A stretch of 64,000 nt of DNA, from contig CALWTH010000041.1 in assembly GCA_944384405.1 (NCBI GenBank), positions 65,394 through 129,393 on the forward strand, in the 5' to 3' direction. Every line of letters starts with the position of its first letter. Position 1 is the stretch's first letter. Shown here one piece after another: positions 5,507-23,574 of this stretch. Source of the DNA: an uncultured Clostridia bacterium. GTDB lineage: Bacteria > Bacillota > Clostridia > Christensenellales > UBA1242. The notes below the pieces were generated by a model, which worked only from the letters and a program-made list of their open reading frames with translations, was not told the origin of the DNA and searched no databases. Made by a program: the position numbers and the translations under genes.

Positions 5507-5512
5507 TGCTAA

Positions 5513-5550: not shown

Positions 5551-5578
5551 CATTTTATAAGGAAGTATGATATAATAC

Positions 5579-5908: not shown

Positions 5909-5921
5909 AAAGGAGAAACTT

Positions 5922-6230: not shown

Positions 6231-6251
6231 GTTTAGATAAAAATATTGAAT

Positions 6252-6566: not shown

Positions 6567-6601
6567 TTTTAACCTATGATTTTTTTATACAAGGAGATTT
6601 T

Positions 6602-7499: not shown

Positions 7500-7500
7500 T

Positions 7501-7634
7501 TTGACACCTATTGACACCTACGGGAGTAGTTTTTGATAATTTTAGAACAATTTAGGCAGGTACTCCGATTTTGGATTACCTGCCTTTTTTTGTGCAATTT
7601 TTCTGACACCTACAACACCCCAAATTGACACCTA
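7501..7634 (+). repeat. Four direct copies of (T/C)TGACACCTA
   Basis: Copies at 7501-7510, 7511-7520, 7603-7612 and 7625-7634, all in the same orientation, flanking a terminator hairpin. Confidence 0.85.
7554..7591 (+). terminator. Rho-independent terminator
   Basis: AGGCAGGTA...TACCTGCCT (9-bp stem) followed by T7. Confidence 0.7.
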
Positions 7635-7671
7635 ATATTTTTTGAGCAAAAATTTATCAAAAATTTTAGAA

Positions 7672-7720
7672 AATAAAAAACCTTTGAAAGTGCCTATTTA
7701 TAAGGGTTTTTCAAAGGTTT
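7672..7720 (-). terminator. Terminator downstream of tRNA-Thr
   Basis: On the minus strand AAACCTTTGAAA...TTTCAAAGGTTT (long loop) runs into a T-run. Confidence 0.5.
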
Positions 7721-7725
7721 ATGAT

Positions 7726-7801
7726 TGGAGCTGATGACGGGACTTGAACCCGTGACCTCTGCCTTACCAAGGCAGTGCTCTACCTGCTGAGCTACATCAG
7801 C
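7726..7801 (-). tRNA. tRNA-Thr (anticodon GGT), CCA encoded
   Basis: Hand-folded 76 nt. Acceptor GCTGATG/CATCAGC (perfect). D arm GCTC-AGCAGGTA-GAGC. Anticodon arm CTGCC-TTGGTAA-GGCAG. T arm ACGGG-TTCAAGT-CCCGT. Ends TCCA. Confidence 0.9.
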
Positions 7802-7948: not shown

Positions 7949-9415
7949 TCATAACAAAGGCGAGAAAAGTCTTAGTATTGCTTGGAACAATTTACTTGCA
8001 AAAAACTTCCGATTAAAATCCTGTAGCGTAACGAGTTTACTGTTTTTTATGTCATTTTCAAAAATTTCAGCGTTAGAATTTACAAACTGTTTGTCATATA
8101 AAAGTGTAGTTAATTCAAAATTAAGTGCAAACGAGCGATTATCTGCGTTACAAGTACCAATCGAAACACAAAGGTCATCAACAAGTAGTGTCTTTGAGTG
8201 CAAAAAACCATTATAAAAATAAACTTCAATACCCGCGTCCAAAAGTTGTTTAACATATGACAATGTTGCATAATAAACTGTTCTTTTGTCGGGCTTTCCT
8301 GGAATCATAACTTTGACATCGACCCCTGTCTTTTGGGCTATTATAAGTGACTTTAAAAACATTTCATCAGGGATAAAATATGGAGTTTGCAAATATATTC
8401 TTTTTTGCGCAAAAGATATCATTCTAAGATAAGCATCTTCAATAAACCTTTGACTGTTTTCTGGTCCACTTGTAACAACTTGAGCACCAATTGAACCTAC
8501 TTCTTTTAATGAAGACTCCAAAAAATAGCCTTCTTTAACAAGTTGCTGAGCGTTTAAACGCTGTTTTTTTACACATCTAAAATCATTAAAAAATATATTT
8601 TGCAAATCCCACACCGCCGGTCCTTCAATCCTTATATGAGTATCACGCCATGGAGAAAGTCGCTTTTTCTTGCCCATGTGGTCATTTCTTAAATTAATTC
8701 CACCGGTATAACCGATTTTTCCATCGATTACAACAATTTTTCTATGATTGCGATAATTTACCTTAAAGTTAATTAATCTTATTCCCATAAATGGTGGAAA
8801 AAACTCCGCAACTTCTCCACCTGCTTTTTTTAGTTTTCTAAAAAATCTGCGTGGTGCTTTGAGAGAACCAACACTATCATATATGAGTTTAACTTTTACC
8901 CCCTCGCGTGCTTTTTGACATAAAATTTGCATTATCTCTTTGCCTGTTTGATCATCATCAAAAATATAATATTCAATATTTATATTGTTCTTAGCACTTT
9001 TTAAATCATTTTTTAAACTTTCAAGTTTTGATGGTCCATCAGTGAACACCTGCACCTTATTCCCTATTGAAAACACATTGCTGTCATTTGACTTAACAAA
9101 CTTAATAAGTTTATAAGCATAGTCATATTTCTCATTTTTTGCACGTAGTTTATCAAAATTTATGCGTTGCCAAGAAATAAATTGCAAATAGTCTTGTGTG
9201 TATCTTCTTTTTCGGCGTATATAGATTCTTGTTCGTATACTAAGTCCACCACCAAATAAAATATACAGGAAAAAGCCAACATAAGGAAAAACTGCCATTA
9301 TGGCAAACCAACCAAACACGCTTTGTGGCTGTTTTCTTTCAACAAATATCATAACAAGCAATAGTAGCAAGTTTATTGCATATGAAACTATCAAAACTAT
9401 TGTACCAACCGGCAT
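7949..9415 (-). CDS. cls: Cardiolipin synthase
   Basis: Two N-terminal TM helices and two HKD motifs (HRKIVVIDGKIGYTGGINL and LHSKTLLVDDLCVSIGTCNADNRS). AGGAG RBS. Confidence 0.9.
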   Translation of the reverse strand: MPVGTIVLIVSYAINLLLLLVMIFVERKQPQSVFGWFAIMAVFPYVGFFLYILFGGGLSIRTRIYIRRKRRYTQDYLQFISWQRINFDKLRAKNEKYDYAYKLIKFVKSNDSNVFSIGNKVQVFTDGPSKLESLKNDLKSAKNNINIEYYIFDDDQTGKEIMQILCQKAREGVKVKLIYDSVGSLKAPRRFFRKLKKAGGEVAEFFPPFMGIRLINFKVNYRNHRKIVVIDGKIGYTGGINLRNDHMGKKKRLSPWRDTHIRIEGPAVWDLQNIFFNDFRCVKKQRLNAQQLVKEGYFLESSLKEVGSIGAQVVTSGPENSQRFIEDAYLRMISFAQKRIYLQTPYFIPDEMFLKSLIIAQKTGVDVKVMIPGKPDKRTVYYATLSYVKQLLDAGIEVYFYNGFLHSKTLLVDDLCVSIGTCNADNRSFALNFELTTLLYDKQFVNSNAEIFENDIKNSKLVTLQDFNRKFFASKLFQAILRLFSPLL

Positions 9416-9432
9416 AATTTCTCCTTTTAATC

Positions 9433-9459
9433 AAAAGGTGGAAACATTTTCCACCTTTT
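9433..9459 (-). terminator. Hairpin between giant gene 1 and cls (possibly partial terminator)
   Basis: Perfect 12-bp stem AAAAGGTGGAAA-cat-TTTCCACCTTTT. The U-run is short. The cls RBS follows within about 15 nt. Confidence 0.5.
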
Positions 9460-9483
9460 GAAATATTGTTAGTTTTTTGAAAA

Positions 9484-12400
9484 TTATACATTTATTGTTA
9501 TAGTGTTTGTATATAGCACAATTTCTTGTTGTGGCGTTTCGGTACTACTTAAATTGTCATAAATCGCAATGTAAAATTTAATAATAACATTAATTTCGGT
9601 TATATCACTTGACGAATCACCTGACGAATCATTTGACGAATCACTTGCTAATAACATTAATGAGTAATTACCATTATCATTTATCAGTAAAACATTTTGG
9701 TCATCACATGTAGCACTAATAAATATATCATCTACGCTCACACTATACATATTTGATAGCAAGGTGAATATGTTTGTATAATTTTCATCTTTTATTCTGG
9801 TTGAAGTGTATGTTATATCATCACCTTCTGTTACATTAATTGTCAAGCCCTCTTGTTCATCTTTATATAAGAACGAGAACTTAAATTCTTGTCTATTGCT
9901 ATCAATACCATATTCAATAACCAAAGATATTATCTTGTTGTTATATGCTGAAAAATCCATTGAGGTAATTAAAATACCATCTGAAACAAATTCAAGATTT
10001 AATCCATTATTTGATTTTCCATTGATATAGAATGTAGCGGAAGGATTTGTTGATATTGAACTAAATGGATAATCGTCAATATCATCAACAGTACTGATGT
10101 AAATAAATTTAGTTGTTTGACTTTCTTGTGACTCATCATCTACAAATGTCTGCACTTCGTTATAGCCAAAAACTTTTACGTCAGAAAAATCAATAAGATT
10201 ATTGTTTACAAAGTTAGTTGTGCTTTGTCCTGCCTGCATAATCAAAGATGATTCTCCAATAATTTTATCAGTACTTGCATATGTATTTACAGTTATTGTT
10301 CCATAGACTGTCCCTGAAATTGTGTCATCATTTTGTGACAGGTTGTTACCTATGGTGTAAGTAAATGTTGTAACAATTCCATTTGTCACTTTTGAATAAA
10401 CAACATTTTTGGAACCTACTAAATAATTGTAACTACCAGATTCAGACTCCAAATCAAATATCTTTGCTCCAGAATCTATATTACCATAAATGTTTCTAAG
10501 TTTAATTTTAGGAAGTAACATTTCAAATACTGCACCTTCATCACCTGAAGAAATAGATTCATACATTGAACTTGATACAAGGCTATTTGCAGTGTATCTA
10601 CTGTCAACAAGAGTGATATTATCAATTCTCACTCCTGTATCGTTGTCACCTTGCAACTTGACAATTAGATAGACATTAGATACATCGTTGTTAAATGTTA
10701 TTGAATCATTGCCAAGGCCAAGATTAATCACGCCCAAACTTAAGTCTTGATTTGCAGAGTCATAAATATCTATGGTTGTATTAGGAAAACGATATTTTAT
10801 ATCATCACCAGTGTAGACATTTGACTTTCCATCTGAAATGTTAAGCATTTGAACAATATCATTTGTCAATATTTTGTAAGTATTTGAAGCACCATCTTGA
10901 ATTCTTGGCAACATTGGAACATTGACCACAATCGAATATGTTGCAGAGTTTGCGTCAGAGAAATATAATCTTAATGTATCAATATATTCAAAGTTGTTGC
11001 GAGCTTGACCATAAATTGTATATATGTCAAGCATAATATAGTTCGTATCCAAATTGAATCCTGGCAAAAGTGTAATTTCGCCTGTGTCCGCATCAACTAC
11101 GACATATTGACTGCCTGTTGATTGTGCTGTATTAAGGTAATATTTAAAATCACCACTATTATTGCTAAGTGTTGTGTCATCTGAAGCAACAAATGATGTT
11201 GCTGACGTGTAACCTGCCACGAGTGTGAATGGCCTATATGTTGTTCCTGCCCATACATTTATACTAATATTATTATTATTAACTGGATCATATGAATTTA
11301 GCACGACATCTTTTGCTTGTTCTGAACCATATGCTTGTGTTGAATCAATATCAATATACTTCAATGTTATCCAAATTTCTGGACTGAATTTTTCAACTGC
11401 CTTTTTAGCCACTCCATTGACAAAACCATAATTGACTTTAACATTTATAGCGCTTGGAGCGTACTTAATGTTCAAACCATCATTACTGATTAAGAATTCT
11501 GCATCACTTGGTATGTATTTTGTCATGCTATATGTATCAGTATCGACAACATCTTGACTACCGGAAACGCTTTCAAACTCAATACCTTTAAGTTGTGCCC
11601 ACTGTTTTACACTTAAACCATTAATAATAGTTCTTTCACCATTTGTGTAAAGTGAAACTTTTTCTCCACGAGCACTATTTATAACTCCAAGTTCACGAAG
11701 AGAATAGGTTACCCTTGAATTAGTATTTGAATCCAAACTAACATTACGCACTTCGCCAGCCTCATTGACAAAGTATACATTCAACTGAGAATTATTTTCC
11801 ATTTGTCTTAAACCAATTGACAAACTTTGGTCAGATATGATGTAACTGCTGTTTATCCTGATTGTATACTGTTCATTCACATCCACTGCTGCGTCTTCAC
11901 GATAAGTGTAATAAAACGTTGCATCTTGTGAAACACTTTTGTAGCCTGAACTTGTTTCTGAAGATAAATAATATGTAGTTAAAGTTTTTCCGTTGTAATA
12001 AGAGAAAGAGTGCTCATCTGTGGAAATCTCAGATAGTTCATTGTTCTCATACTCATAATTTGTAACAATATAAGTTATTTGGAATTGATAGTTACTAATA
12101 TCTGTTATATCAAATATATCTTCAATTGAAATGTATACAGAAGATGAACTATTGATAGGAACTGTTTCTGTTATGACCTGATTATTTTGCAGATTTTTTG
12201 CTCTTATAATCAAAGACAAAACATTATACACACTATCCAAATAAACTTTTTGATTTCTTGAATTTAAAATGGTGTAATCAAAGTAAATTGTGTGCGAGTC
12301 TTTTAAACTTCTTTCTCCAACCGTATAGTTTTGACTATTGTCAACAACATCAACAACATCAAGCAAACTAAATGGAACGCCATCTCTTACATATGGAGTA

Positions 12401-15400
12401 TCAGTTGTTGTTAAACTATATCTTTCAAGAATTGTCGTTGGAATTTGAATATCAATTTGATATCCGCTTTCGTCTTTTGCACTTATCGATAATATTCCTG
12501 ACAACCTGCCACCAACAAAATAAACATAGTCAATCATGTCAATATTAAAGTAAACTGAGTTGGAGTCACTAATAAGGTCTGTTTTTATTAATTGCTCACC
12601 ACTATCTGTTGTGAATTTTGCAGTCCAATTACTACTAAAGTCAGTAAGTTTCAAATCAGGAATACCAGAATCACGAGGTGTGAAAGTAATAGGTATTGTG
12701 TGGTTATAATTATTTGTTGTTGTTCCTCTATCAACAAGAGCAACTGAATCTAGTTCAAATGGAGTTAGTGAACTTGTGCTGGATGTAACATTGTATTGAG
12801 CGACAATTGTGACATAATAAACAATTTTATATCCATAAGCATCAGTTAATACAATATCAACATTTCTATTGCCATATTTGATGTCTGTAAATTTGAAGGC
12901 AAGGTCATAGTTTTGCTCAGTTTGCTGGAATTGAAGCACATATTCGCCACCTTGGTTATATTTTACATTAAACAAAGGTGCAACATTGCCTATCTGATTT
13001 TGATTTTCATTTTTGTGTTGAATATAAATGAAGTTGTCAATAGGTTCTTCACTTCCCCAATGGGCAAAAATTATATAATCAACAAAATTATAATCGCGAA
13101 TCAAGTTTCTATTTGATTCAGAGTTTTCTGTTCCGTCTGAATTTTTCAATGACTCATTTTCGTAGTCGTGACTTACAACAAATGTAAATGTGAAATCTTT
13201 TATTATTGAACCATAAGAAACTGTCAAAACAAGTTCCACCGTCACAGAAGTCTCTTTTGGAGAACCATAAGCCATAAAGTTATAGTCATAGTTATATCCT
13301 TCGCCCTCAGCAGCGGTGTATCTTAAATATCCAGTGTTGGTTATAAGATTTTGATATTCAGGATTTGTTGCTCTATATGAAATTGTGCCTTCAATATTTA
13401 AACTTAACCCTGTACTTGAAAAATCCGAATCGACATAATATGTTCCATTTGAACTTCTCTTCATGTTTATAAGGCTAACATAATTTGCATTGTTATTTCC
13501 TATTCCATTATGAAGAACACTTGTATTTTGACCTGCCGATAATTCAATATTTTCTGAACTTTCAAATTCAATATCAAAGCCATAGTTTACATAATAAGTA
13601 CCTATTGACGTACCATTTGAAACGCTTTGTCCATTTCTTGAATTAACATATATTGATTTTGCTATTAACTGTTCTTGTGTTAAAGCATCTTCCCCAGTTG
13701 TTTGTTGCAAAGAACAATTAGTTCCACTAAGTAAACCATATGTCTTAAAGAAATCAATGTTGTTATATTGCGTTGTAACTGATGCACCATCACCAAATGA
13801 TGTGACAGTCCTATATGAAAGGAGAATTCTTGATTCAAAAGATACCTCTATATTATTCCATGTGTCGTCGGTTATGATAACTGGGACATATTCCCCTTCC
13901 TGAGAAAGTTCGCATATTTCCCACTGAACACCAGTGTCACTTGAAACAAAGTTTGTCATGTCTGAAACGCTTAATGATGTTAGTGTTGCAAACAATGAAA
14001 TTTGGTCACCTTGAGATCCTTCTGCCATAGTTACATAGTCTGCTTCTGCTATGACACCATTTATCATTATCGGTCTTATATATTTTGTTGTTGAAAGGTC
14101 AGCATTTTCTGGGACTGTGAGTGTAAGACGGATTTTTGTAAGCAAGTCATCATTTGAAGCAATATATATGTTTTCTGGGTTATTTGAATTATTGTTTGAT
14201 GAATCAGTGTTATAGTTAAATCCTGCAAATCCATAGATGTTGTTCATAACCACAACATTATAAACACCAACTGGGATATATGTTTTATCATCAAGAGATT
14301 GATCACCAAGAGAATAATATAGTCCAAATTGAAGACTTAAGCCATCATAAACACTTAAACCTTCACTGCCCTGAATATTAAACACAGTGCTTAGAGCGTA
14401 ATATTCATTTCCAACATTTGCACCATCAACATAAACATATTCTGAGCCACTGCCAACTTGAACATAGATATGTTGTTCATGCTCAGCATCTTCGCTTTGA
14501 ACTTCAACACGTGCATTATCTGCTAAATCTGCAACATCTGCAAGTGAAATAATATTTTGGGCATTTTCTGATGAATCAAACCAATATGACTCTGCAACAC
14601 TGACAACGCCATCGTTTGGCAATGGATAATTTGTGATAATGGTGAAGTTAGATGAAAGTGTGAATTTGAAATATGAACTCATCACCAGTACATCATCACT
14701 ACTTACGGTGTTATAATATGAGATTCTAAATGACAATTCGGTCACATTTGCCACTTCACTTATATTTAGTTGAACAACATAATGGTTATTTTCATTTAAT
14801 ACAACACTTCCTGAAAAGTCACCATAAACATTTTGAGTAATTAGTTCAACGTTAAATCTACCAAGTCCATTGTCCACAACATTTTTATACCAAGCATCAA
14901 AGTCATCGCCTGCAAAATCAAATAAAGATGACAAAATGTCGACATTTTGAATTTCACCTGCTTTAACTCCATAAACTGGCAACATGTTATTTTGAGAAAT
15001 TTGTTGGTTATTTGTTGACGAAACTTTTAATGTTGACTTGATTTTTAAATTAAAATCAAAATTGTATGCAACATTTTGCGTGCCATCAGTAAATTCAAAC
15101 CTTATTTTTGTAACAACATTTGTATCTTCTGTGACAAGTCCAATATTTAGACTTTTTGCCGCATCATCATAGTACAAAGCCGAATTTTGTGTAACAATTT
15201 CAACTATAATATTATCAAAATCATTGAATGTTTCACCTGTATCTTCTTTGACAATTTCAAATGTATTAGCAATATCAATAATATTGCCCGAAATAATTTC
15301 GTATGTGCCTGCTGTAGTTTCAACAAGTCCTGATGTGTTTGTTTCAACAATATTTATTTTATAATTTGAAAGAACATATAATCTTACAACATCTAGAACC

Positions 15401-18400
15401 CCATATTTTGTATAGAATACCATGTTGGTATTCCAATTTTCTGTTGTGTCATCAGCATATAGCGTCATTGTATCATAGTCAATATAAGCATTTTGACCTT
15501 GAATATTAGTTGCAACAATATAATAATTCAAAAGATTATTTGCTGATGTTTCGCCAGATGATGCATTGAAACTTATTGATAGAGAATACATTCCTTCAAG
15601 CAAAAGTCCTTCATCGCCTGCTTTTAAATTGATATCTTCAATATTAGTTGATGAAACACCCTCTTGTGTACGCTGAACAAAAGTGAATGTAGGTATTTCG
15701 CCAACACTTAAATAATAATATGCTTCAAGTCCGCTTGCAGTGGTCATACCCACCTTGACTCTAACATATTGAGCACCATTTCGCCTTATTGTCACAACAC
15801 CTTCCGAAGAAACTTGTGCATACTGAGAAACATTTGTTGCTGTGAACCAATCATAGAAATAATATGCAACTTCTGAAATTGTGAATGTCAATTTAGAATA
15901 TGGAGTTAGTTCTGTTTGTGGAATAAATGTTCCATCTTTGAGAGTTCCAATGACAATTCTTTGGTTATATTGATAGTTTGGAATTAAACTATCAAATCTA
16001 GCAAGAAGATCAGCGCTTGCATTGCCACTATCATCAAAACTTAAATACTCCATATCGTATGTCACATTCTTAACATCGCCATGAAGTGCAGTCCCTGTTA
16101 TGTTCCCATTTGCCGAATATGTCATCATGTATGGATAATAAATGTGAACATCAAGCATTTTTTCTATTTTAATTAAATAAGGAACAACTAAACTGGTGTT
16201 AGCCAAGTTTAATTTTGCCTCAGCAATAACAAACGTACCATTTCCACCAACAGGTTCAACAAACAATATTCCATTTTCAAAATGAGCATAAATATTTAAG
16301 TCACTATCATCTATATTTTTAACAGATAAAATAGAATTTTTTAAATATCCTGATAGCCCATATTGCTGCGTTTGTTCATCTATAAAAATATTGTAACCTT
16401 GAGTGTCGTATTCGGAAATTGTGTAGTAAAGTCCATTGTCCATAACCCATTCGATGTCAAGCAAGTCGCGAAGGTCATATTCCTGCCCAGCAATTTGATT
16501 TGGATAAATTACATATGGCAAATCAAAAGGAAGAAGCAATATGTTGAACGTGATGCTATCGCCATTACTTAGCACAAGTTGTGCAGTGTTTCCTGTTATT
16601 AGGTTGTTATTCACACCTTGAATAGTAATAGTGTCACCTTGGACAGTAATTTCATTTGTGTTTTCTATATTAAGTTTAGATGAAATTTGTGCTGTGCTGT
16701 TTTGTGCTTGTGAAATTGTGAAAGCCTGTATGATTTCATCAGAAGTGTATTGTTCGCCGTTTACAAACTTAAGATAATACTCACCATCATAAAGCACCCA
16801 CATTGTGCTATCTTGATTACGTGTTATATTTGGACGAAGAGTTAATGTTATTTCATATGTCTTTCCGTCAGATGTCAAAACATCAACGCCATTATATGTA
16901 ACTATTAGTTTAATGGTTGCACTATTTTGAATATTTGCAAGACTATAAATTATAAATTCATCTTGATTGCCATTTCTTTGAATAACATAATCGTGAGAAT
17001 AACTATCGTCAACAAATTTAAAACCGATTTGAGAATAATCAATGTCAAAGTTTACATTGTCAGAGTTATGAATTCTACTTATGCCAAGTGGTGCGTTTTG
17101 TGCTCCCAAAAGCGTTGCACTACCATAATAACGGTTTGTGTTATTGATTGTGTCAAAAGCAACATCAAGCAAAATTTCATCACTAGATTGTGTAACCATG
17201 ACGTTTGGATTTATATAAAGATAAAGCGAACTTGATGCATCAACACTTGCATTTGTTAGCAAGTCATTTTTTTCAAGTGCAAGCATAACGCGCCTATATC
17301 CGTTATCTTTGTTTAAAGATTTAAACACTATATAAGCATCATAAATATATTCAAAAGTAGAGCCATCAAGTCTATTAACGGAATTGTTAGTAACTTCTCC
17401 ATCTGTCGATTCAAAGCTTTCTATATAAGCATTTGCGCCTGTATCTGTTGTTGTTAGTAAAAGCCTATCACCTAGTTCGCCGTTTTCATCATATTCGTAT
17501 AGATATAACGAATACGATGAATTGTCGACAAGGAAATTTTCAGAGCCTGTGCCGGCATGATAGTTGAGCATAAATCTAACATGATAAAGTGAATCGGCAT
17601 AAACACCGCTATATATCACATTTCCAACACTAGAAATAGGTTCAACATCATAATTGTTATCATATGGATTTAAAGCAGTGGAAACATTGCTTGCTATATC
17701 AAGTACTACTATCTGTGAAATTCCAAGTGCAGCAACTGTTATATTAAGTTGTAAACCAAATGGCTTACCAAAATCTTTTAGAATAGATATGGTGCTAAGA
17801 TTTGATGCAGTGCCACCAAAGTTAACATAACCTTCTAAAGTTGTGATGTCTTGTTCATTGACAAGTGCAATATTCATAAGATTTGTAAGATATCCACTTT
17901 GTGTGTTTGATGAATAATAATATGTCAATAGGTTGACTTCACCTGCCGTTGTTGATTTTAAATTGATTATTGAGCCTGCGTATCCAACTATTTGAACAGA
18001 AAGCTGAGCAAAATCATATGGTACAGTTGAAAGATCTGTGCTATATTCTTGCACTGAACTTTTGGTGTATGGATTTTCGGCACTCTCTACCAATTTATCA
18101 ACTCTTGAAACATAGCCATCTTGCTCACAACTAAAATATAATGTGTCTTTGATTGTTCCTTCTGCGTCACGGAGATAAACTTCAACATCTCCCGCACCAT
18201 TAAATGTGAAGGAATTGTTTGAAACGGTTAATATTGATGTGTTTGAACTTTCAAGAGTATAATTACTTGAAATTGGCAACTTTCCGTATTTGTCATGAAG
18301 TGTTATTGCAAGGGTTGAATAATCAACTTCTCCAAGGTCGCTTGTTTCAAAAAGCATACCACTAACATCATGCCCATTAACCATGTATGATGTATTTATG

Positions 18401-20793
18401 TTATTTATATAATTATTTTCTGCAGTAATGACGGTGTTTACCAAAATTCTATTATCGGCGCTTGACTGATAAATTCCGTCTTCTTGAATGTTTACGCTAA
18501 AGTCAAAAACAGTTGCCGAGCCATCATACACTTCAATACATTCAAATGTCTGACCATCATTATAAGTATTTACCTCATATTCAATAGGTTGATCAAGTGC
18601 ATCATTTTCATAAACAACATATAGTTTTATTCTGCGTTCACTCACCCCATCGGAAAGTGCACCAATATTCATTGAAAATACAAATTGTGCGCCGTCATTT
18701 TGCTCTGTGTACGAAACTGAATAAATAAGTGATGTTTGCGTGTTTGAATCTTCTATTTTTGCAACAACATAAATGTCGCCATTAATGACTGCATTTTTAA
18801 ATATTTGCTGTTCATTTATTTGGTCACTTTGATTTGCTGACTGAGGTAGTGTGTATTCAACAACAACTTCAAAAGGTGATGTCGTGTTTTGCACATAAGC
18901 AATATCATTAGCTTCACTTATTGTGAGCTCATCATCAGCAAGTGCTGTTTGAATGTGATTTTCAAGTCCATACAATGTCTTGTCAATATACAATTGTAAA
19001 GTGGAAATAGCATTGAGGTCGTCTTGGCTGTATCTTTGAATGACATATCTACCGTTTTCATCAAGTTTTGGATTTGCCTGATAATCAGTTTGCACGGTCA
19101 TAAACAAAATATCAAATGTGTGACCATATGCCTCTGTTGATTTTGGTTCAATTATACCATTATCAATTTCATAAAGCGTCACTGTTTGTGCCCCAAGTTG
19201 ATACTCGGCAGGCTGATTGCTTATTGTGTTTATCAAATCGGTGACTTGATATTGCATTGAACTAACGACAAAATATCTGCGTGTTTGATACAAGTTGGAT
19301 TGTGGAACATAAGCAAAATCTGAAGCATCAAAAGAAGTCATAACAGGATTTTCACCATCAATTATCGTTAAAGTCTGTGATGTTGATGTCCAATAAATAC
19401 CGGCATCAGTAATTGCGTTTGTTGAAAAATATGTAGTTTGTGGTTCAACTTCACTAGCAGTGTTACCGAAATATCTTGCTTCAATAACAAGATTGTTAGC
19501 ATCAACATAATTAGAAACGGCAAATCGCCAATAATAATCATCTACGCTTGATGTGATGACTGGGAAATAGAATGTATAAACTTGCCCTCCTATTTCGACT
19601 TCTTTTGTGTTACCATAACCATATGAAGGCAAGGATACAATGTTGTATGCATCGTTTTCACTATTTACTGCATCATAGTAGTTGTTGCCAACCTTATACA
19701 AAAATCTTATTGCAACATTGTCAAGTTCATGCTGTAAAGAAACTGTTCTGTCAATTTCAGAATAAAGATGAATTCCAAGATTTGATTGCGTTGCAGTTTG
19801 TGAAACATCTTTATTTACATAAAGTGTATTGAGTTTGTCAATATCAACACTTGCCACTGAGCCTTCAATACGCATACTATCAACTTCAACATTTACTATT
19901 TCCACAGTTTTTGTTGTTCTGTGTGCTCGCAACGTCGTTGCCGTATCGTCTGTTGAAAGTTGATAAAGGTTAGCAAGTATTGCTGAATATTGTGCCTCTT
20001 CGTCAAGGTTTTGAAGTCCAAGCAATATTTCTTTTTCAATTGATGCTGATGAAAACACATAACCAACTATTGTACTTGAACCGATGCGGTTTGTTAAAAA
20101 GGCGTTGGTGTGCCCATTTTGTGAAATATTTTCATCTGTGTTTGATAACAATGTGAAATATGTATTTTTATATACTACTTCTCCATCTGACCCATCATGG
20201 CTATATTGATATGCGCTGCGTGCTGGATAAAATTTTAAACTTGCATTTATTGTTGAACCAATGGCAAAAGTGTCACTGTTATCATCTGTCGCACTTACTC
20301 GCGTTTCAAGTTCAACATCGTAGACAGGGACATCTACATTGACTTTTGCACTAATTGAATCAATTCGTTGGTTTTTGGAAGTTGCCGTGATTACACTATG
20401 CCCGCCTGTTATCCAGTCTTGTCCAAAGCATTCTTCATCGTGCATAGTCTTTTCAAGCACGACCAAGAAAGGCTCGCCTATTGTTGCCGTTTGAGGAATA
20501 GAAATTACTCCATCACTAATTCTAACTTCACCATTATTTTCAGTATATGGTTCACCATTTTGCAAACTTAAAGTAAGTTGTGTTTCTGTGACGTCTTGTG
20601 TGGTTGAAGAAATGGTAATTGAAAAATCACTATCAACATTATATTCTGATAAGTTAAAGGTAATATCGGCAGGCAAAACAGTAGGCTTGCTGAAATATCC
20701 CGCTATCGCCATGATACCGACTCCAATTCCAATTGCACCCACAAAACTTGCTAGTGCTATTGCAAAAACTTTTAAAAATGTAGTGAATTTCAT
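9484..20793 (-). CDS. Giant surface protein 1 (3,769 aa): N-terminal membrane anchor plus long non-identical beta-rich (Ig-like) region
   Basis: Uninterrupted 11,310-nt ORF. GGGAG RBS. Residues 1-37 are hydrophobic (FAIALASFVGAIGIGVGIMAIAGYF). The rest is N/S/T/Y/D/V-rich and Cys-poor, with no GLUG motifs and no C-terminal sorting signal. Confidence 0.8.
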   Translation of the reverse strand: MKFTTFLKVFAIALASFVGAIGIGVGIMAIAGYFSKPTVLPADITFNLSEYNVDSDFSITISSTTQDVTETQLTLSLQNGEPYTENNGEVRISDGVISIPQTATIGEPFLVVLEKTMHDEECFGQDWITGGHSVITATSKNQRIDSISAKVNVDVPVYDVELETRVSATDDNSDTFAIGSTINASLKFYPARSAYQYSHDGSDGEVVYKNTYFTLLSNTDENISQNGHTNAFLTNRIGSSTIVGYVFSSASIEKEILLGLQNLDEEAQYSAILANLYQLSTDDTATTLRAHRTTKTVEIVNVEVDSMRIEGSVASVDIDKLNTLYVNKDVSQTATQSNLGIHLYSEIDRTVSLQHELDNVAIRFLYKVGNNYYDAVNSENDAYNIVSLPSYGYGNTKEVEIGGQVYTFYFPVITSSVDDYYWRFAVSNYVDANNLVIEARYFGNTASEVEPQTTYFSTNAITDAGIYWTSTSQTLTIIDGENPVMTSFDASDFAYVPQSNLYQTRRYFVVSSMQYQVTDLINTISNQPAEYQLGAQTVTLYEIDNGIIEPKSTEAYGHTFDILFMTVQTDYQANPKLDENGRYVIQRYSQDDLNAISTLQLYIDKTLYGLENHIQTALADDELTISEANDIAYVQNTTSPFEVVVEYTLPQSANQSDQINEQQIFKNAVINGDIYVVAKIEDSNTQTSLIYSVSYTEQNDGAQFVFSMNIGALSDGVSERRIKLYVVYENDALDQPIEYEVNTYNDGQTFECIEVYDGSATVFDFSVNIQEDGIYQSSADNRILVNTVITAENNYINNINTSYMVNGHDVSGMLFETSDLGEVDYSTLAITLHDKYGKLPISSNYTLESSNTSILTVSNNSFTFNGAGDVEVYLRDAEGTIKDTLYFSCEQDGYVSRVDKLVESAENPYTKSSVQEYSTDLSTVPYDFAQLSVQIVGYAGSIINLKSTTAGEVNLLTYYYSSNTQSGYLTNLMNIALVNEQDITTLEGYVNFGGTASNLSTISILKDFGKPFGLQLNITVAALGISQIVVLDIASNVSTALNPYDNNYDVEPISSVGNVIYSGVYADSLYHVRFMLNYHAGTGSENFLVDNSSYSLYLYEYDENGELGDRLLLTTTDTGANAYIESFESTDGEVTNNSVNRLDGSTFEYIYDAYIVFKSLNKDNGYRRVMLALEKNDLLTNASVDASSSLYLYINPNVMVTQSSDEILLDVAFDTINNTNRYYGSATLLGAQNAPLGISRIHNSDNVNFDIDYSQIGFKFVDDSYSHDYVIQRNGNQDEFIIYSLANIQNSATIKLIVTYNGVDVLTSDGKTYEITLTLRPNITRNQDSTMWVLYDGEYYLKFVNGEQYTSDEIIQAFTISQAQNSTAQISSKLNIENTNEITVQGDTITIQGVNNNLITGNTAQLVLSNGDSITFNILLLPFDLPYVIYPNQIAGQEYDLRDLLDIEWVMDNGLYYTISEYDTQGYNIFIDEQTQQYGLSGYLKNSILSVKNIDDSDLNIYAHFENGILFVEPVGGNGTFVIAEAKLNLANTSLVVPYLIKIEKMLDVHIYYPYMMTYSANGNITGTALHGDVKNVTYDMEYLSFDDSGNASADLLARFDSLIPNYQYNQRIVIGTLKDGTFIPQTELTPYSKLTFTISEVAYYFYDWFTATNVSQYAQVSSEGVVTIRRNGAQYVRVKVGMTTASGLEAYYYLSVGEIPTFTFVQRTQEGVSSTNIEDINLKAGDEGLLLEGMYSLSISFNASSGETSANNLLNYYIVATNIQGQNAYIDYDTMTLYADDTTENWNTNMVFYTKYGVLDVVRLYVLSNYKINIVETNTSGLVETTAGTYEIISGNIIDIANTFEIVKEDTGETFNDFDNIIVEIVTQNSALYYDDAAKSLNIGLVTEDTNVVTKIRFEFTDGTQNVAYNFDFNLKIKSTLKVSSTNNQQISQNNMLPVYGVKAGEIQNVDILSSLFDFAGDDFDAWYKNVVDNGLGRFNVELITQNVYGDFSGSVVLNENNHYVVQLNISEVANVTELSFRISYYNTVSSDDVLVMSSYFKFTLSSNFTIITNYPLPNDGVVSVAESYWFDSSENAQNIISLADVADLADNARVEVQSEDAEHEQHIYVQVGSGSEYVYVDGANVGNEYYALSTVFNIQGSEGLSVYDGLSLQFGLYYSLGDQSLDDKTYIPVGVYNVVVMNNIYGFAGFNYNTDSSNNNSNNPENIYIASNDDLLTKIRLTLTVPENADLSTTKYIRPIMINGVIAEADYVTMAEGSQGDQISLFATLTSLSVSDMTNFVSSDTGVQWEICELSQEGEYVPVIITDDTWNNIEVSFESRILLSYRTVTSFGDGASVTTQYNNIDFFKTYGLLSGTNCSLQQTTGEDALTQEQLIAKSIYVNSRNGQSVSNGTSIGTYYVNYGFDIEFESSENIELSAGQNTSVLHNGIGNNNANYVSLINMKRSSNGTYYVDSDFSSTGLSLNIEGTISYRATNPEYQNLITNTGYLRYTAAEGEGYNYDYNFMAYGSPKETSVTVELVLTVSYGSIIKDFTFTFVVSHDYENESLKNSDGTENSESNRNLIRDYNFVDYIIFAHWGSEEPIDNFIYIQHKNENQNQIGNVAPLFNVKYNQGGEYVLQFQQTEQNYDLAFKFTDIKYGNRNVDIVLTDAYGYKIVYYVTIVAQYNVTSSTSSLTPFELDSVALVDRGTTTNNYNHTIPITFTPRDSGIPDLKLTDFSSNWTAKFTTDSGEQLIKTDLISDSNSVYFNIDMIDYVYFVGGRLSGILSISAKDESGYQIDIQIPTTILERYSLTTTDTPYVRDGVPFSLLDVVDVVDNSQNYTVGERSLKDSHTIYFDYTILNSRNQKVYLDSVYNVLSLIIRAKNLQNNQVITETVPINSSSSVYISIEDIFDITDISNYQFQITYIVTNYEYENNELSEISTDEHSFSYYNGKTLTTYYLSSETSSGYKSVSQDATFYYTYREDAAVDVNEQYTIRINSSYIISDQSLSIGLRQMENNSQLNVYFVNEAGEVRNVSLDSNTNSRVTYSLRELGVINSARGEKVSLYTNGERTIINGLSVKQWAQLKGIEFESVSGSQDVVDTDTYSMTKYIPSDAEFLISNDGLNIKYAPSAINVKVNYGFVNGVAKKAVEKFSPEIWITLKYIDIDSTQAYGSEQAKDVVLNSYDPVNNNNISINVWAGTTYRPFTLVAGYTSATSFVASDDTTLSNNSGDFKYYLNTAQSTGSQYVVVDADTGEITLLPGFNLDTNYIMLDIYTIYGQARNNFEYIDTLRLYFSDANSATYSIVVNVPMLPRIQDGASNTYKILTNDIVQMLNISDGKSNVYTGDDIKYRFPNTTIDIYDSANQDLSLGVINLGLGNDSITFNNDVSNVYLIVKLQGDNDTGVRIDNITLVDSRYTANSLVSSSMYESISSGDEGAVFEMLLPKIKLRNIYGNIDSGAKIFDLESESGSYNYLVGSKNVVYSKVTNGIVTTFTYTIGNNLSQNDDTISGTVYGTITVNTYASTDKIIGESSLIMQAGQSTTNFVNNNLIDFSDVKVFGYNEVQTFVDDESQESQTTKFIYISTVDDIDDYPFSSISTNPSATFYINGKSNNGLNLEFVSDGILITSMDFSAYNNKIISLVIEYGIDSNRQEFKFSFLYKDEQEGLTINVTEGDDITYTSTRIKDENYTNIFTLLSNMYSVSVDDIFISATCDDQNVLLINDNGNYSLMLLASDSSNDSSGDSSSDITEINVIIKFYIAIYDNLSSTETPQQEIVLYTNTITINV
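9605..9648 (-). repeat. 12-nt in-frame tandem repeat (about 3.5 units) near the 3' end of giant gene 1
   Basis: TCACTTGACGAA / TCACCTGACGAA / TCATTTGACGAA / TCACTTGC, encoding SDSS-NDSS-GDSS-SD. Confidence 0.8.
20683..20793 (-). other. N-terminal signal-anchor / signal peptide of giant protein 1
   Basis: MKFTTFLKVFAIALASFVGAIGIGVGIMAIAGYFSKP. No lipobox Cys. Confidence 0.6.
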
Positions 20794-20849
20794 AACTTAC
20801 TCCCACAACGCAACCGACTTTAAATTATTATTTACTATTAGACAAAATA

Positions 20850-20878
20850 ATTATATAGTTTATGCCTATTTAAGTCAA
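20850..20878 (-). promoter_or_regulatory. Near-consensus sigma-A promoter of giant gene 1
   Basis: Minus strand TTGACT, 17-nt spacer (TAAATAGGCATAAACTA), TATAAT. Confidence 0.65.
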
Positions 20879-21141: not shown

Positions 21142-23574
21142 ATGCCAGATATTAAGCCAAGATTTAGTATCAATATCAAATACAAAGACCATAGCGAATT
21201 TCAAAATTTCAGCATGAAAAAAGGTGATGACGCAATATGTCTTTATGAAAAAGGACAAGATAATGCTCTGATTATGGTTGAACCCTTAAAAAAAGATTTT
21301 ACAATCGACAATACATCACATAGATTTGATGAAATTTCAAAAGATGATGTGATAATTCTCCATGGGATAGAAAATGTAAGCGCTGAAAGTAACAATGATT
21401 TTATCCTCACATTAGACACCCAAAAAGGCAAACGCACATACAAAATTTCTCACAACGCACTTAGCGTTAAGAAAGGAAGAAGTTTTGAACCTGTCGTGAG
21501 TTTTGAACATCCACTTGATGTATCTTTGCCAGAAAGTTTACCATCTCAAATTGCAAACAATAATATAAAAATGTCAACTTTTCCAGCACAAATGACACAA
21601 ATGCTTGTTGAAGATTATGGCTATAATTCATTAAAATTAGAAAATGGTATGACCATTTTAAAATCCCCTAATGGTAAAATCATATTCCCTGATGGATCAA
21701 AACTATCCACATCAACAACTCAGGATATAGTGAAAGCACCAAGCGGACTTGTGTTAAGATTGTTACCAAGTGCTGAGATGAAAAAAATGAAAGAGAACCA
21801 AGTAAAAAAGGGAATTAATATAACAGAAAATGATTTTGAAGCCCTTAATAAATTTATGGGTAAAAACCAAAAGATTGAAGACGTTCCTACCCTAACATCA
21901 GACTCATCTTATGTCAAATTAAGAAAATCATCAGCAGCATATAAAGTAGGAAAAGAAGAACAAAAAACTATAGATGATAGTAAAGAAAAACAAATATTTG
22001 ACTATGTTACAAATCAAGCTAATAATTTATCAATAAACAACACCGATTACATCACTAACGTGGACAGTTGGGAATCAAATTTAGGTAGCAGTTTTATTTA
22101 TAATGAATCTGATTCAAAAGTTCAATCAGGGGTAAAAAATACAGAACAAAATCAAGATGAAACTCAAAAAGCAACAGATGTCGAAAGTCAAGAAAACAGT
22201 GCGGTAAACACAGCAAACGCTGATTCAAATGGTGATGACTCATCTAGTCCATCTGCCACTTTAGCGGAAGACACACAAGTACAAACATCAAACACTTCAT
22301 CTGATAACAATCAACCAAACGCTTTTGCCGTTTCAGACAAACTACGAGCAAACGAAAAAGAGAAAAAAGAATCCACCCCGTCAAATCAAGACAAAGACGC
22401 AAGTGCAAAACAATCTACCAGCGACGCCTCACAAGAAGTCAAGAAAAATGACGAAAAACAGAAGAAAATAATGGACGAAAAAGAATTTAACATGATGCAC
22501 AAAGGAATAAGATTTATTCTGTTAGTCGTCGCAGCAAACTTCTTTATGGCAGCCATGATGCTTGCAAATCCATTGTTTGCAATCATTGCAATCATGAGCT
22601 TATTTGGAATGGTAACATCAGGAATTATGCAACAATCGAAGTTTAGATTTAGTACAATCTTCTCTATTGCAAATGATATAGTAGATTATGTCAAAGCAAA
22701 ACATTCAATCAAAGAGCTTACTAAAAGTGAAACCAAAAAAATGAATAAACTTCTTGAAAAACAATCAAAAGGGCTTTCACCAAAGGAACAGAAAAAACTT
22801 GATAAATTACAGTCAAAACTAAAGTCAAACAAACGTATAAATAAAAAAATTGATAAACTTCAAAAAAAACAAGCAAATGGACTTTCAAAAAGGGAGCAGG
22901 AAAAACTTGATATGTTGCTGACAAGAAATGAATATAAACTTTCACAAAATGAATATAAACATTTTATAAACAATGAAACACCTGCTATGAAAGCTGTAAA
23001 CAATTATCGTGACCTTGCCAAAGAACAAGAAGATGCTTTTAGACTTGCGAAAGCACAAAAACTTGCAGCAATCGACAAAGATATAGCATATCGTAAAGAA
23101 TACTTAGAACGTGGAAAAAATGTCATTCCAGAGCAAAACCAAAAAGCAATTAAAGAAGATATTAATCATTTAATCGCTTATAGAAATAGTGTTGACGATG
23201 TACAAAACATTTCTCAAGATATAAATAGAAAAAATATTGGTGATATTGAACAATCACTTATAGACAAACCAAGAAATTGGCTTGATAATGAACTTGATAT
23301 TGAACAAACTACATTTCAAGAGATGGCACAAACAAGTGGAGTCCAAGAACCAACTTTGAAAATTGACACACAAACATTAATAGAAAACGAGCCAGAATTA
23401 TTACGTCGTGTGGAAGCACTAAAACAAAGCAAAACACAACAAAGCACAAAGCAAGATGTAAATGAAACAAAGGATAATTCCAACAACGATAAAAGTGCTA
23501 TTGAAAATAACCAACAGCGACAAATCAACAATCAAACAACAAAACAAGATGATGACACAACTTTAACGCTTTAG
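21142..23574 (+). CDS. Hypothetical 810-aa membrane-hairpin protein with acidic low-complexity and Lys-rich coiled-coil regions
   Basis: Strong RBS. No signal peptide. Central hydrophobic pair. S/D/N/Q-rich stretch before it and heptad-like K/E/L/Q-rich region after it. Confidence 0.75.
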   Translation: MPDIKPRFSINIKYKDHSEFQNFSMKKGDDAICLYEKGQDNALIMVEPLKKDFTIDNTSHRFDEISKDDVIILHGIENVSAESNNDFILTLDTQKGKRTYKISHNALSVKKGRSFEPVVSFEHPLDVSLPESLPSQIANNNIKMSTFPAQMTQMLVEDYGYNSLKLENGMTILKSPNGKIIFPDGSKLSTSTTQDIVKAPSGLVLRLLPSAEMKKMKENQVKKGINITENDFEALNKFMGKNQKIEDVPTLTSDSSYVKLRKSSAAYKVGKEEQKTIDDSKEKQIFDYVTNQANNLSINNTDYITNVDSWESNLGSSFIYNESDSKVQSGVKNTEQNQDETQKATDVESQENSAVNTANADSNGDDSSSPSATLAEDTQVQTSNTSSDNNQPNAFAVSDKLRANEKEKKESTPSNQDKDASAKQSTSDASQEVKKNDEKQKKIMDEKEFNMMHKGIRFILLVVAANFFMAAMMLANPLFAIIAIMSLFGMVTSGIMQQSKFRFSTIFSIANDIVDYVKAKHSIKELTKSETKKMNKLLEKQSKGLSPKEQKKLDKLQSKLKSNKRINKKIDKLQKKQANGLSKREQEKLDMLLTRNEYKLSQNEYKHFINNETPAMKAVNNYRDLAKEQEDAFRLAKAQKLAAIDKDIAYRKEYLERGKNVIPEQNQKAIKEDINHLIAYRNSVDDVQNISQDINRKNIGDIEQSLIDKPRNWLDNELDIEQTTFQEMAQTSGVQEPTLKIDTQTLIENEPELLRRVEALKQSKTQQSTKQDVNETKDNSNNDKSAIENNQQRQINNQTTKQDDDTTLTL
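22507..22629 (+). other. Two adjacent TM helices (hairpin) in the 810-aa protein
   Basis: IRFILLVVAANFFMAAMMLA-NP-LFAIIAIMSLFGMVTSGIM, flanked by basic residues on both sides. Confidence 0.6.
22735..22920 (+). repeat. Two 78-nt imperfect direct repeats inside the 810-aa gene
   Basis: 22735-22812 and 22843-22920 encode KKMNKLLEKQSKGLSPKEQKKLDKLQ and KKIDKLQKKQANGLSKREQEKLDMLL. Confidence 0.75.

Follow-up and report, generated by a model that had tools for sequence, protein, structure and literature searches.

What kind of protein is encoded by an open reading frame of 11,310 nt, and what might a cell use it for? The frame lies in a window of 64,000 nt (the whole stretch of DNA analyzed here), and the original prediction took its product for a giant extracellular fiber or adhesin. 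The reading we favor, with a probability of roughly 0.6, is a membrane-anchored extracellular fiber, built as an Ig array and used for contact or adhesion. The features bearing on this reading are listed below by their position in the window.

7949–9415, minus strand: cardiolipin synthase gene cls, downstream of the giant gene (two PLDc_2 domains and PLDc_N)
9431–9461, minus strand: stem-loop GGTGGAAA-loop-TTTCCACC, then TTTTGATT, between the giant gene and cls; by folding, a probable leaky intrinsic terminator
9484–20793, minus strand: coding sequence of the giant protein, 3,769 aa plus stop
9487–17673, minus strand: residues 1041–3769, outside the structural model, similar to the modeled part in composition and beta propensity and collinear in the family
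12310–12423, minus strand: best-conserved distal motif, RYxL..TPYVRDGVxFSLLDVxDVVD..VGER, residues 2791–2828 (invariant columns of A2, A10, and A7)
17674–20676, minus strand: residues 40–1040, about ten Ig-like beta-sandwich modules predicted in series, where conservation along the protein is highest (AF2 and Foldseek)
20695–20787, minus strand: N-terminal hydrophobic helix, residues 3–33, a putative signal-anchor or possibly a long signal peptide (AF2 model and family columns)
20794–20849, minus strand: conserved 5′ leader, TATTTTGTCTAATA-GTAAATAATAATTTAAAGTCG..., with the ribosome-binding site (sequence conservation across loci)
20850–20878, minus strand: sigma-70-type promoter, with the −35 hexamer TTGACT at 20878–20873, a 17-nt spacer, and the −10 hexamer TATAAT at 20855–20850
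21142–23574, plus strand: divergent gene for an 810-aa protein with a ~270-aa N-terminal domain, a low-complexity linker, a transmembrane (TM) hairpin, and a K/E-rich coiled coil

An intact gene, its expression signals, and its family

The frame is uninterrupted along its whole length, as first described, and the chance of 3,769 codons remaining open is near 1e-127, given that ~7.5% of random codons are stops at 32% GC. Neither of the artifacts raised with the original prediction applies: the gene is not an assembly error, since an identical protein occurs in five contigs from at least three independent assemblies, and its orthologues are not fragmented, with ten of them intact and collinear (3,601–3,812 aa, 34–65% identity). 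The dN/dS ratio is ~0.16 along the full length (0.09–0.28 per 300-codon window), compared to ~0.02 for cls and gmk, and identity to the closest orthologue is 65% for the giant protein, 96.5% for cls, and 95% for gmk. The giant gene is real and under purifying selection, evolves faster than its housekeeping neighbors, and is apparently a single-copy core gene in a housekeeping context. Its product, of 420 kDa and pI 4.14, is rich in N, S, T, Y, D, V, and I and contains only six Cys residues (0.2%), in keeping with the composition reported at the outset.

The promoter and ribosome-binding site were also correctly located, the latter (GGGAG, 20804–20800) lying 6 nt ahead of the ATG. Across 12 orthologous loci, the promoter is kept almost base for base, and the 5′ leader is much better conserved than the synonymous sites of the giant gene (dS ~1.5); the AAATAAT core of the leader persists even in distant family members. 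A pattern search with the extended promoter returned a single match in the window, and an Rfam search with the leader returned none. Judging from these signals, the giant gene is probably well expressed.

An exhaustive HMMER search (E ≤ 1e-3, counted as cluster representatives) yielded a family of 95 representatives, including ~32 giants of 3,223–4,623 aa. All 95 align from their first residues (residues 1–6 in the giants), with the signature M[KR]xF.K[IV]F.I.F.S.[IV]G..G...G[IV]M..xGxF.E..[IV].PE.I.F beginning at residue 1, and N-terminal fragments of ~50 residues still reach E-values of 1e-5 to 1e-10. The hmmsearch segments place the giants collinear with the window protein over ~3,000–3,500 positions. 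Identity declines along the protein, from 0.65 at the N-terminal end to ~0.25 at the C-terminal end, while the distal motif at residues 2791–2828 is retained in distant members; the sole conserved Cys, C122, is lost in one member (P0001). Sequence searches with the giant protein against Pfam, NCBIfam, and the PDB gave no match, consistent with the earlier report of no recognizable catalytic motif. Judged from its sequence relatives, the giant gene founds an unannotated family confined to uncultured gut Clostridia.

Variability peaks in the last ~470 residues (21–35% column identity), as would be expected if the giant protein were a polymorphic toxin, or an effector, whose C-terminal payload varies. 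We consider this very improbable: the variation is gradual and lacks a sharp junction, the extreme C-terminus (EFYISIYD...IVLYxNT) can still be aligned, the downstream gene is cls rather than an immunity gene, and no toxin domain was found.

The N-terminal helix as probable anchor

The giant protein starts with MKFTTFLK followed by ~26 apolar residues, which is also the median length of the apolar stretch in the family, and the AF2 model places a helix at residues 3–30. This is the only TM-like segment of the protein. No variation occurs at G26 and G32 among 41 giants, and very little at F6, F10, I12, G19, and F34. Net charge over 86 family N-termini is +3.2 before the helix and −1.9 after it; some family members carry long basic cytoplasmic tails ahead of the helix. 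These topology signals are N-in/C-out. The first 45 residues contain no Cys and therefore no lipobox ([LVI][ASTVI][GAS]C), as the original prediction had it, and its statement that sorting motifs are lacking likewise agrees with our searches: LPXTG is absent from the whole giant protein, which ends in ...IVLYTNTITINV, and from the C-terminal 80 residues in a set of 41 family members. No SLH or CWB2 wall-anchoring domain was found in the giant protein by Pfam search.

Most likely, the helix would stay in the membrane as the anchor. A possible, if tentative, alternative is that it serves as a Sec signal peptide cleaved after G32, with the mature protein released or held non-covalently via its conserved N-terminal modules. 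The total of ~32 residues fits typical Gram-positive signal peptides, and the invariant G32, with L, I, or A at −3, fits the −3/−1 rule; however, the median apolar stretch exceeds usual h-regions, conservation of the helix in sequence is unusual for signal peptides, and the long basic tails precede it in some members. The giant protein also has no alternative wall anchor, and cleavage would therefore leave it with no recognizable anchor of any kind (LPXTG, SLH, or lipobox).

A modeled chain of Ig-like modules and its proposed function

AF2 was run on residues 1–1200 with a 37-sequence family alignment, giving a mean pLDDT of 84.9 (~90 for residues 40–1040) and a model in which the TM helix is followed, in residues 40–1040, by 47% strand and 10% helix. 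Foldseek matched this model to multi-Ig arrays only. The PDB matches (E 1e-14 to 1e-7) were titin I65-70, contactins, cadherins, the MG arrays of complement C5 and alpha-2-macroglobulin, the S-layer proteins SbsB and EA1, and the GhpA base, with the archaeal S-layer protein 7ptp also among the matches; the viral library returned phage Ig arrays. TM-scores were low (0.1–0.2), since it is the module type that matches and not the chain geometry. The model thus shows residues 40–1040, and these residues only, as a chain of serial Ig-like beta-sandwich modules matching solved Ig arrays. Composition and collinearity suggest the same fold for residues 1041–3769, and extrapolation from a module size of ~100 residues would give roughly 35 modules in all. 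Predicted disorder, which had been named as a counter-indication, does not apply to the modeled residues 1–1200, which are folded beta; for the remainder, a folded beta structure is suggested by composition.

No internal repeats were detected in the giant protein by hhalign self-comparison (best probabilities 1.9% and 16.8%), and no Ig-like, cadherin, or FN3 domain exceeded the Pfam gathering threshold in the window protein, 10 orthologues, and 12 diverse giants (47,000 residues). Our verdict is that the new family consists of membrane-anchored, non-repetitive Ig-array fibers.

As we picture it, the helix would insert the giant protein N-in/C-out via the Sec pathway, and everything beyond it (~3,730 residues) would extend outside the cell as a long string of Ig-like beta-sandwiches, whose modules would have diverged until none resembles another in sequence, in an order fixed across the family. 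The membrane-proximal third, the most conserved, would cross or contact the cell envelope, and the fastest-evolving distal end would be the part presented outside. With its fastest-evolving end facing outward, the protein would thus most likely be an envelope-spanning fiber for contact or adhesion. The extracellular fiber originally proposed is supported by the topology signals and by the Ig-chain model of the first ~1,040 residues, the remainder being alike in composition and free of any further TM segment. The adhesin half of that proposal is suggested by analogy, because no ligand-binding or lectin-like domain was identified in the giant protein.

The Firmicute stalk adhesins SasG, Ebh, and Esp are likewise very large, acidic, and extracellular, with serial Ig-like beta-sandwich modules. 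In stalks of this type, the repeats are nearly identical and differ in number, and the anchor is LPXTG or C-terminal, whereas the giant protein has no repeats even at the profile level, a fixed module order, an N-terminal anchor, no LPXTG, and no Pfam Ig match. Strict collinearity without copy-number change, atypical for stalk-type adhesins, may point to a structural rather than an adhesive role.

One such role would be a structural envelope layer, an S-layer- or sheath-like coat, in which unique modules making position-specific lattice contacts would account for the fixed module order. SbsB, EA1, and the archaeal csg protein 7ptp are chains of dissimilar beta-sandwiches, envelope-associated and probably highly expressed, to which the giant protein, as modeled, is similar; its family is strictly collinear, with repeats neither expanded nor contracted, and the consensus-like promoter, conserved leader, and apparent single-copy core status in a housekeeping context would suit a coat protein. 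Even so, we regard this as unlikely: at 3,769 aa the giant protein exceeds known S-layer proteins three- to fourfold in size and lacks SLH and CWB2 domains, the same Foldseek search returns any Ig array equally well, and divergence that rises towards the tip suits a projecting fiber better than a lattice.

The projecting, membrane-anchored fiber shares features with several other systems. Bacterial alpha-2-macroglobulins and the C3/C5 MG arrays, which gave top Foldseek matches, have an N-terminal membrane tether and non-repetitive beta-sandwiches in fixed order; unlike the alpha-2-macroglobulins, the giant protein is more than twice the size, is tethered by a TM helix instead of a lipobox, and contains neither a CxEQ thioester nor A2M/TED Pfam domains. 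Of the traits of RTX/T1SS adhesins (LapA, SiiE, and MpIBP type), neither GGxGxD in the giant protein nor ABC/MFP/TolC genes in the window were found. Defining motifs of the sortase-anchored, lipoprotein, RTX/T1SS, and alpha-2-macroglobulin classes are missing from the giant protein.

Giant1-5 of Apilactobacillus kunkeei, encoded in a small Firmicute genome, are extracellular, Asn-rich, mostly unannotated proteins of 3,000–8,000 aa, with arrays of beta-sheet domains in Giant4 and Giant5 (PMC12863079), and they resemble the giant protein in size, extracellular site, Asn-richness, and paucity of annotation. Their Sec signal peptides are cleaved, and they carry imperfect internal repeats of considerable length, which are mostly alpha-helical in Giant1-3, as well as a beta-solenoid at the N-terminus and DUF5776/SH3b-like domains for wall binding at the C-terminus (PMC12863079), whereas the giant protein has no repeats, beta-solenoid, or DUF5776/SH3b-like domain (Pfam, hhalign, and AF2 of residues 1–1200). 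The giant genes of Omnitrophota, in the available part of their description, are metagenome-derived with largely unannotated products and are linked to cell-wall degradation by predatory bacteria (10.1101/2023.11.21.568195); the likeness is one of description only. These genes belong to a different phylum, and the giant protein has no visible enzymatic domain.

Conserved neighbors and a possible larger apparatus

Two giant GLUG lipoproteins are encoded elsewhere in the window, at 31287–40784 and 40814–60700. The original prediction that the giant protein is not a simple paralogue of this pair is sound, as it contains no GLUG motif and shows no BLASTP or HMM similarity to either lipoprotein. 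The suggestion that all three proteins form one surface apparatus draws on their giant size, acidity, N/S/T-richness, and near-absence of Pfam matches, and on the placement of the genes on the same strand within 40 kb, the pair lying 10 kb from the giant gene. We find it unsupported and quite improbable: similarity is lacking at both sequence and profile level, the anchor types differ, housekeeping genes lie between, and no second giant gene occurs within 10 kb of distant family members. The close similarity claimed for the promoters was overstated, with TTGACA-17-TATACT ahead of the lipoprotein operon sharing the sigma-70 consensus alone with that of the giant gene.

The conserved partners of the giant gene are instead cls and the ~810-aa gene, and the giant gene is genetically coupled to both. 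It adjoins cls in all 16 loci, including those of members ~25% identical with different other flanks, and the products of the window cls and those of four distant loci score above the curated cut-off of the TIGR04265 equivalog. Homologues of the 810-aa coiled-coil membrane protein, which is taken to face the cytoplasm, has no real match in Pfam, NCBIfam, or the PDB, and belongs to no known family, are encoded upstream of the giant gene at every locus seen except one (L015), and architecture and position are kept across giant-family members only ~25% identical.

This coupling raises the question of whether the giant protein could serve as the outer arm of an apparatus that spans the envelope. 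Its TM helix would pack against the hairpin of the coiled-coil protein within a membrane patch rich in cardiolipin, and a cytoplasmic scaffold would be coupled to the fiber, as in an attachment organelle or the Gli349 motility leg of Mycoplasma mobile. Gli349 has ~3,200 aa, an N-terminal TM anchor, a long extracellular rod, and weak ~100-aa repeats, and is encoded beside other large membrane-protein genes; its organism lacks a cell wall and has a dedicated internal motor. The likeness is confined to general architecture (an N-terminal TM segment and an ectodomain of >3,000 aa), and, unlike in the Gli349 system, no motor genes are linked to the giant gene. Conservation of the TM helix beyond mere hydrophobicity in 41 giants, the strong scores of ~50-residue N-terminal fragments, the constancy of the upstream gene, and the invariable adjacency of cls would all fit such an apparatus. 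We nevertheless hold it to be doubtful: the locus without the upstream partner argues against it, the conserved surroundings include no motor or ATPase gene, and cls adjacency could mirror a general need for anionic lipid in the Sec export of a 3,700-residue substrate. We would be similarly hesitant to combine the giant protein, the coiled-coil protein, and cls into one trans-envelope organelle module, with a fiber of ~35 modules in fixed order and at least 100 nm, for surface movement or for attachment to hosts or other cells; if true, this lineage of uncultured gut Clostridia would possess a surface machine unlike any described in walled Firmicutes.

Of 14 sequences folded, 10 have the stem-loop between the giant gene and cls at the same position but with a different stem sequence; two loci in which cls follows 21–35 nt downstream lack it, and two others fold differently. 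Read-through of this putative leaky terminator would probably allow cls to be co-transcribed with the giant gene.

Expression signals and constraint of the giant gene

The gene was predicted to be an uninterrupted frame with a strong promoter and a ribosome binding site (RBS), all of which are present:

20793 to 9484, minus strand: giant gene, uninterrupted ORF of 3,769 codons plus stop
20878-20873 and 20855-20850, minus strand: promoter, TTGACT and TATAAT separated by a 17-nt spacer
6 nt upstream of the ATG: RBS, GGGAG

The encoded protein (420 kDa, pI 4.14) begins with MKFTTFLK followed by ~26 apolar residues, and is abundant in N, S, T, Y, D, V, and I, with only six Cys overall. Given that none of these Cys lies within the first 45 residues, there is no lipobox; the hydrophobic, lipobox-free N-terminus and the nearly Cys-free, N/S/T/Y/D/V-rich composition were therefore read correctly from the sequence. 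The promoter had also been described as closely similar to that of the two giant genes encoding GLUG lipoproteins (31287-40784 and 40814-60700, minus strand), which was overstated, as the lipoprotein operon (TTGACA-17-TATACT) shares the consensus only.

At 32% GC, chance cannot produce so long an open frame (~1e-127 by arithmetic). Assembly error, raised earlier as a possible explanation, does not account for it either, as five contigs, drawn from no fewer than three independent metagenome assemblies, encode the identical 3,769-residue protein. Scanning one genome per GTDB species, we found 13 loci with a homologue, all in MAGs of uncultured Clostridia or 'Christensenella sp.'. The orthologues are not fragmented, a second concern, since ten of these loci encode intact, full-length, collinear proteins (3,601-3,812 residues, 34-65% identity) and the remaining three are cut short by contig ends. 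In comparison with the closest orthologue, dN/dS was 0.16 overall and 0.09-0.28 across all 300-codon windows, compared to ~0.02 for the neighbouring cls (cardiolipin synthase) and gmk; protein identity was 65% for the giant protein, 96.5% for cls, and 95% for gmk. The giant gene is thus constrained end to end, yet its evolution far outpaces that of the neighbouring housekeeping genes, a pattern usual for surface proteins. Among the uncultured animal-gut Clostridia where it is found, it is apparently conserved as a core gene.

The promoter and ~55-nt leader are nearly base-identical in 12 loci, though synonymous sites are saturated. This region corresponds to 20794-20878 (minus strand) in the window and to the same region in the homologous loci L001-L013. 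Directly after the -10 hexamer, the leader carries an inverted repeat (ATTATT-N6-AATAAT), and its AAATAAT core survives in the distant members L015-L017. No Rfam family matched the 5′ leader, which may be an operator or an mRNA-stabilising element.

A collinear family of Ig-like modules

With a profile of residues 1-870, an exhaustive HMMER scan of 1.84 billion cluster representatives recovered 95 proteins at E<=1e-3, all matched from their own residues 1-6 and ~32 of them giants of 3,223-4,623 residues. Word-indexed protein searches were insensitive for this family, a 1,200-aa query and a profile query each returning one fragment. With a full-length ortholog HMM, the giants align collinearly over ~3,000-3,500 positions, even at ~25% identity. 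No significant internal repeat emerged from a BLASTP self-comparison or from hhalign of segments against the rest, which reached a best probability of 1.9% (11-sequence profile) and 16.8% (41-sequence profile). Given this collinearity and lack of repeats, the family has a fixed-order, non-repetitive architecture, unlike a stalk whose repeats grow and shrink in number.

The giant protein had no match in Pfam or NCBIfam, and motif searches were also empty, in keeping with the original prediction of no recognisable catalytic or sorting motif; a polymorphic toxin is an extremely improbable identity for it. Twelve diverse giants (47,000 residues) gave zero Pfam matches, neither the full ortholog profile nor a distal-core profile matched any PDB sequence, and the named members, from Clostridiales/Clostridia MAGs, are annotated only as 'hypothetical protein'. 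Our literature searches on Christensenellales and Clostridia found no description of the family. Thioester (CxEQ), alpha-2-macroglobulin, RTX, and prepilin identities were each considered and rejected, with the motifs all absent.

AlphaFold2 was run on residues 1-1200. A two-sequence alignment gave an unusable model (pLDDT 32), and an alignment with 36 family members added gave a mean pLDDT of 84.9. Residues 40-1040 are modelled as folded beta structure at pLDDT ~90, so disorder, the third concern raised, does not apply to them. The model comprises a helix (residues 3-30) and a short extended linker, followed by 47% strand and 10% helix. The strands cluster in groups of ~100 residues, from which we estimate, using the secondary-structure string and not coordinates, roughly ten beta-sandwich modules in the modelled part. 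Against the PDB, Foldseek matched multi-Ig arrays only (E 1e-14 to 1e-7, 7-11% identity):

titin I65-70, contactins, cadherins
MG arrays of complement C5 and bacterial alpha-2-macroglobulin
S-layer proteins SbsB and EA1, and an archaeal S-layer protein
GhpA base, ciliary central-apparatus proteins

Phage Ig arrays were matched in the viral library. TM-scores were low because the module type matches and the chain path does not. S-layer proteins are among these matches, and an S-layer-like structural role for the giant protein is rather unlikely.

The remaining 2,700 residues equal the modelled part, window by window, in composition, beta propensity, and aromatic content, with low complexity confined to a single run of 15 residues; the giant protein has no second TM segment. 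Extrapolating from this resemblance, the whole would hold ~35 Ig-like modules. An extended Ig module is ~4 nm long, which would make the extended fibre roughly 120-160 nm long. In one relative (P0001), a PGAGDPGAGDPGAGDPGAGEPDPE linker is inserted at residues ~770-800, aligning to residue ~747 of the window protein (window ~18550), at a modelled boundary between beta-sandwich modules. As placed in the model, the insertion would fit tolerant hinges between the modules. The family alignment is deep enough for confident structure prediction, and the rest of the architecture should therefore be quickly resolvable.

Mean identity to the window protein declines from 0.65 (residues 1-200) to 0.21-0.35 (beyond residue 3300), interrupted by strongly conserved islands at ~2400-2670, 2791-2828 (TPYVRDGVxFSLLDVxDVVD, kept also in distant members), and 3181-3200 (WAGTTYRPF). 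The gradient would fit a protein whose conserved base meets envelope components that do not vary and whose exposed tip is variable, with the distal islands as candidate functional sites. Near the N-terminus, a DxEC(x)G(x)xWITGGHS motif spans residues 119-133 (window ~20395-20439) and holds the only invariant Cys (C122) and one of two invariant His (H132) among 11 close orthologues. Neither P0001 nor the wider family keeps C122, yet W127, G130, and G131 are still invariant, which argues for a role that is probably structural rather than catalytic.

A probable anchored surface fibre

The N-terminal helix is the signature of the family. Across 41 giants, G26 and G32 are invariant and F6, F10, I12, G19, F34, P41, and F46 nearly so, and N-terminal fragments of ~50 residues alone still score E 1e-5 to 1e-10. 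In 86 N-termini, net charges of +3.2 ahead of the apolar stretch and -1.9 over the 15 residues behind it indicate an N-in/C-out topology. A cleaved signal peptide would accord with the [LIA]-x-G32 pattern, which obeys the -3/-1 rule; however, the median apolar stretch is 26 residues long, and in some members long basic tails precede it, both favouring a retained signal-anchor. On these sequence features, we consider retention probable and cleavage a minority prospect. Alternative anchors (LPXTG, YSIRK, KxYKxGKxW, and lipobox motifs; SLH and CWB2 domains) are absent from the giant protein.

We favour, at a probability of about 0.6, an anchored fibre of Ig modules. The N-terminal helix would target the protein to the Sec translocon, and the protein would stay anchored N-in, its ~3,730-residue ectodomain folding outside into Ig-like modules, each unique, strung in a long chain. 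Of these, the conserved proximal ones would cross or bind the envelope, and the distal part, which evolves fast, would be displayed for environmental contact. Where a giant extracellular fibre or adhesin had been proposed, the fibre is supported and the adhesin stays unproven.

Such a protein would work in the same way as the giant Ig-fold fibres of Gram-positive bacteria but, unlike them, lacks repeats, LPXTG, and a Pfam Ig family. Alpha-2-macroglobulins are likewise membrane-tethered, fixed-order series of beta-sandwich domains; the giant protein differs in having neither a thioester nor A2M domains. The nearest architectural analogue may be the Gli349 leg of Mycoplasma mobile, N-terminally anchored and of ~3,200 residues. 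The giant protein also differs from the Giants of Apilactobacillus kunkeei, whose signal peptides are cleaved and which carry long repeats, a beta-solenoid head, and wall-binding DUF5776 domains (PMC12863079).

The family is previously unannotated and sequence-dark, and belongs among giant Ig-array surface proteins, a known kind; what is unusual is its strict non-repetitive collinearity, sequence-conserved N-terminal anchor, and invariant cls linkage. Giant surface proteins govern the attachment of gut bacteria to hosts, food particles, and one another. Most known examples are repeat-based and readily recognised; this family, with what would be dozens of Ig-like modules, each unique and in an order fixed throughout its existence, is wholly missed by current domain libraries.

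The GLUG lipoproteins (3,165 and 6,628 aa; lipobox LSAC and FSAC) are themselves almost without Pfam matches, with one GLUG motif in 9,793 residues, and resemble the giant protein in composition. BLASTP and the full-length profile showed no similarity, so homology was rejected, consistent with the earlier view that the giant gene is no simple paralogue of the pair. We found no evidence for the proposed shared surface apparatus, which is very unlikely.

Conserved genomic neighbours

The window is a housekeeping chromosome region (holB, PSP1, rsmI, tatD, ksgA, gmk, cls, glmM). In all 16 loci with a visible flank, cls follows the giant gene (inverted in one), including ~25%-identical members whose other flanks are completely different. 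These are bona fide cardiolipin synthases: the cls of the window and those of four distant loci score above the curated TIGR04265 equivalog threshold. In L008, a 492-aa ORF of the same length as cls lies ~6 kb upstream of the giant gene (2244-3719, plus strand); the window cls query gave no separate match to it by single-HSP tblastn. The gap between the giant gene and cls contains the following:

9431-9461: stem-loop and T-rich tail

Its position is kept, with a differing stem sequence, in 10 of the 14 sequences folded; two loci (L010 and L015) lack it and have cls within 21-35 nt, and two others fold differently. Stems in the intergenic regions of L001-L011 include GGTGGAA, GACGGAAG, and GCAAAAGGA. 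As the gap is too short for a promoter, we infer that cls would be transcribed by read-through from the giant-gene promoter, which the stem-loop pattern suggests is attenuated. Cardiolipin stimulates SecYEG/SecA, and anionic-lipid microdomains mark streptococcal secretion sites. The linkage to cls could be accounted for in two ways: anionic lipid may be needed to export so long a substrate, or the fibre may sit in cardiolipin-rich membrane regions.

Upstream, a divergent gene for a 630-920-residue protein is present in all loci seen except L015:

window, 21142-23574, plus strand: neighbour gene (810 aa)
L001, 6973-9669, minus strand: neighbour gene
L014, 254-2317, minus strand: neighbour gene
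L016, 3207-5846, minus strand: neighbour gene
L017, 1443-3344, minus strand: neighbour gene

Its architecture is conserved: a ~270-residue N-domain (N57, F62, P130, P148, and Q150 invariant), a low-complexity linker (G/P/D- or N/S-rich), a TM hairpin (helix breaker at its centre; about residues 465-515 in the 810-aa window protein), and a coiled coil rich in K/E. The neighbour had no real match in Pfam, NCBIfam, or the PDB, and represents a second unannotated family; its PDB profile matches were rejected as involving low-complexity K/E-rich regions only. Given the hairpin and lack of a signal peptide, both termini should face the cytoplasm. This constant coiled-coil neighbour, together with the conserved TM sequence of the giant protein, raises the more novel possibility of a trans-envelope complex, a variant of the fibre model that we consider unlikely. 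The pairing with cls and the coiled-coil protein provides a testable hypothesis on how a 420-kDa ectodomain is exported, positioned, or coupled to the interior.

Elsewhere in the window, a phage-type integrase (524-1519) comes after a tRNA gene (418-489), and a second tRNA gene (7729-7801) adjoins cls. A DUF4186 gene lies ~350 nt past cls in L001, and in the window ~2.5 kb of small ORFs separate the two genes, with two Cys_rich_CPCC proteins and unknowns at 5579-7499; the tract (5200-7801) may be a small insertion or variable region.
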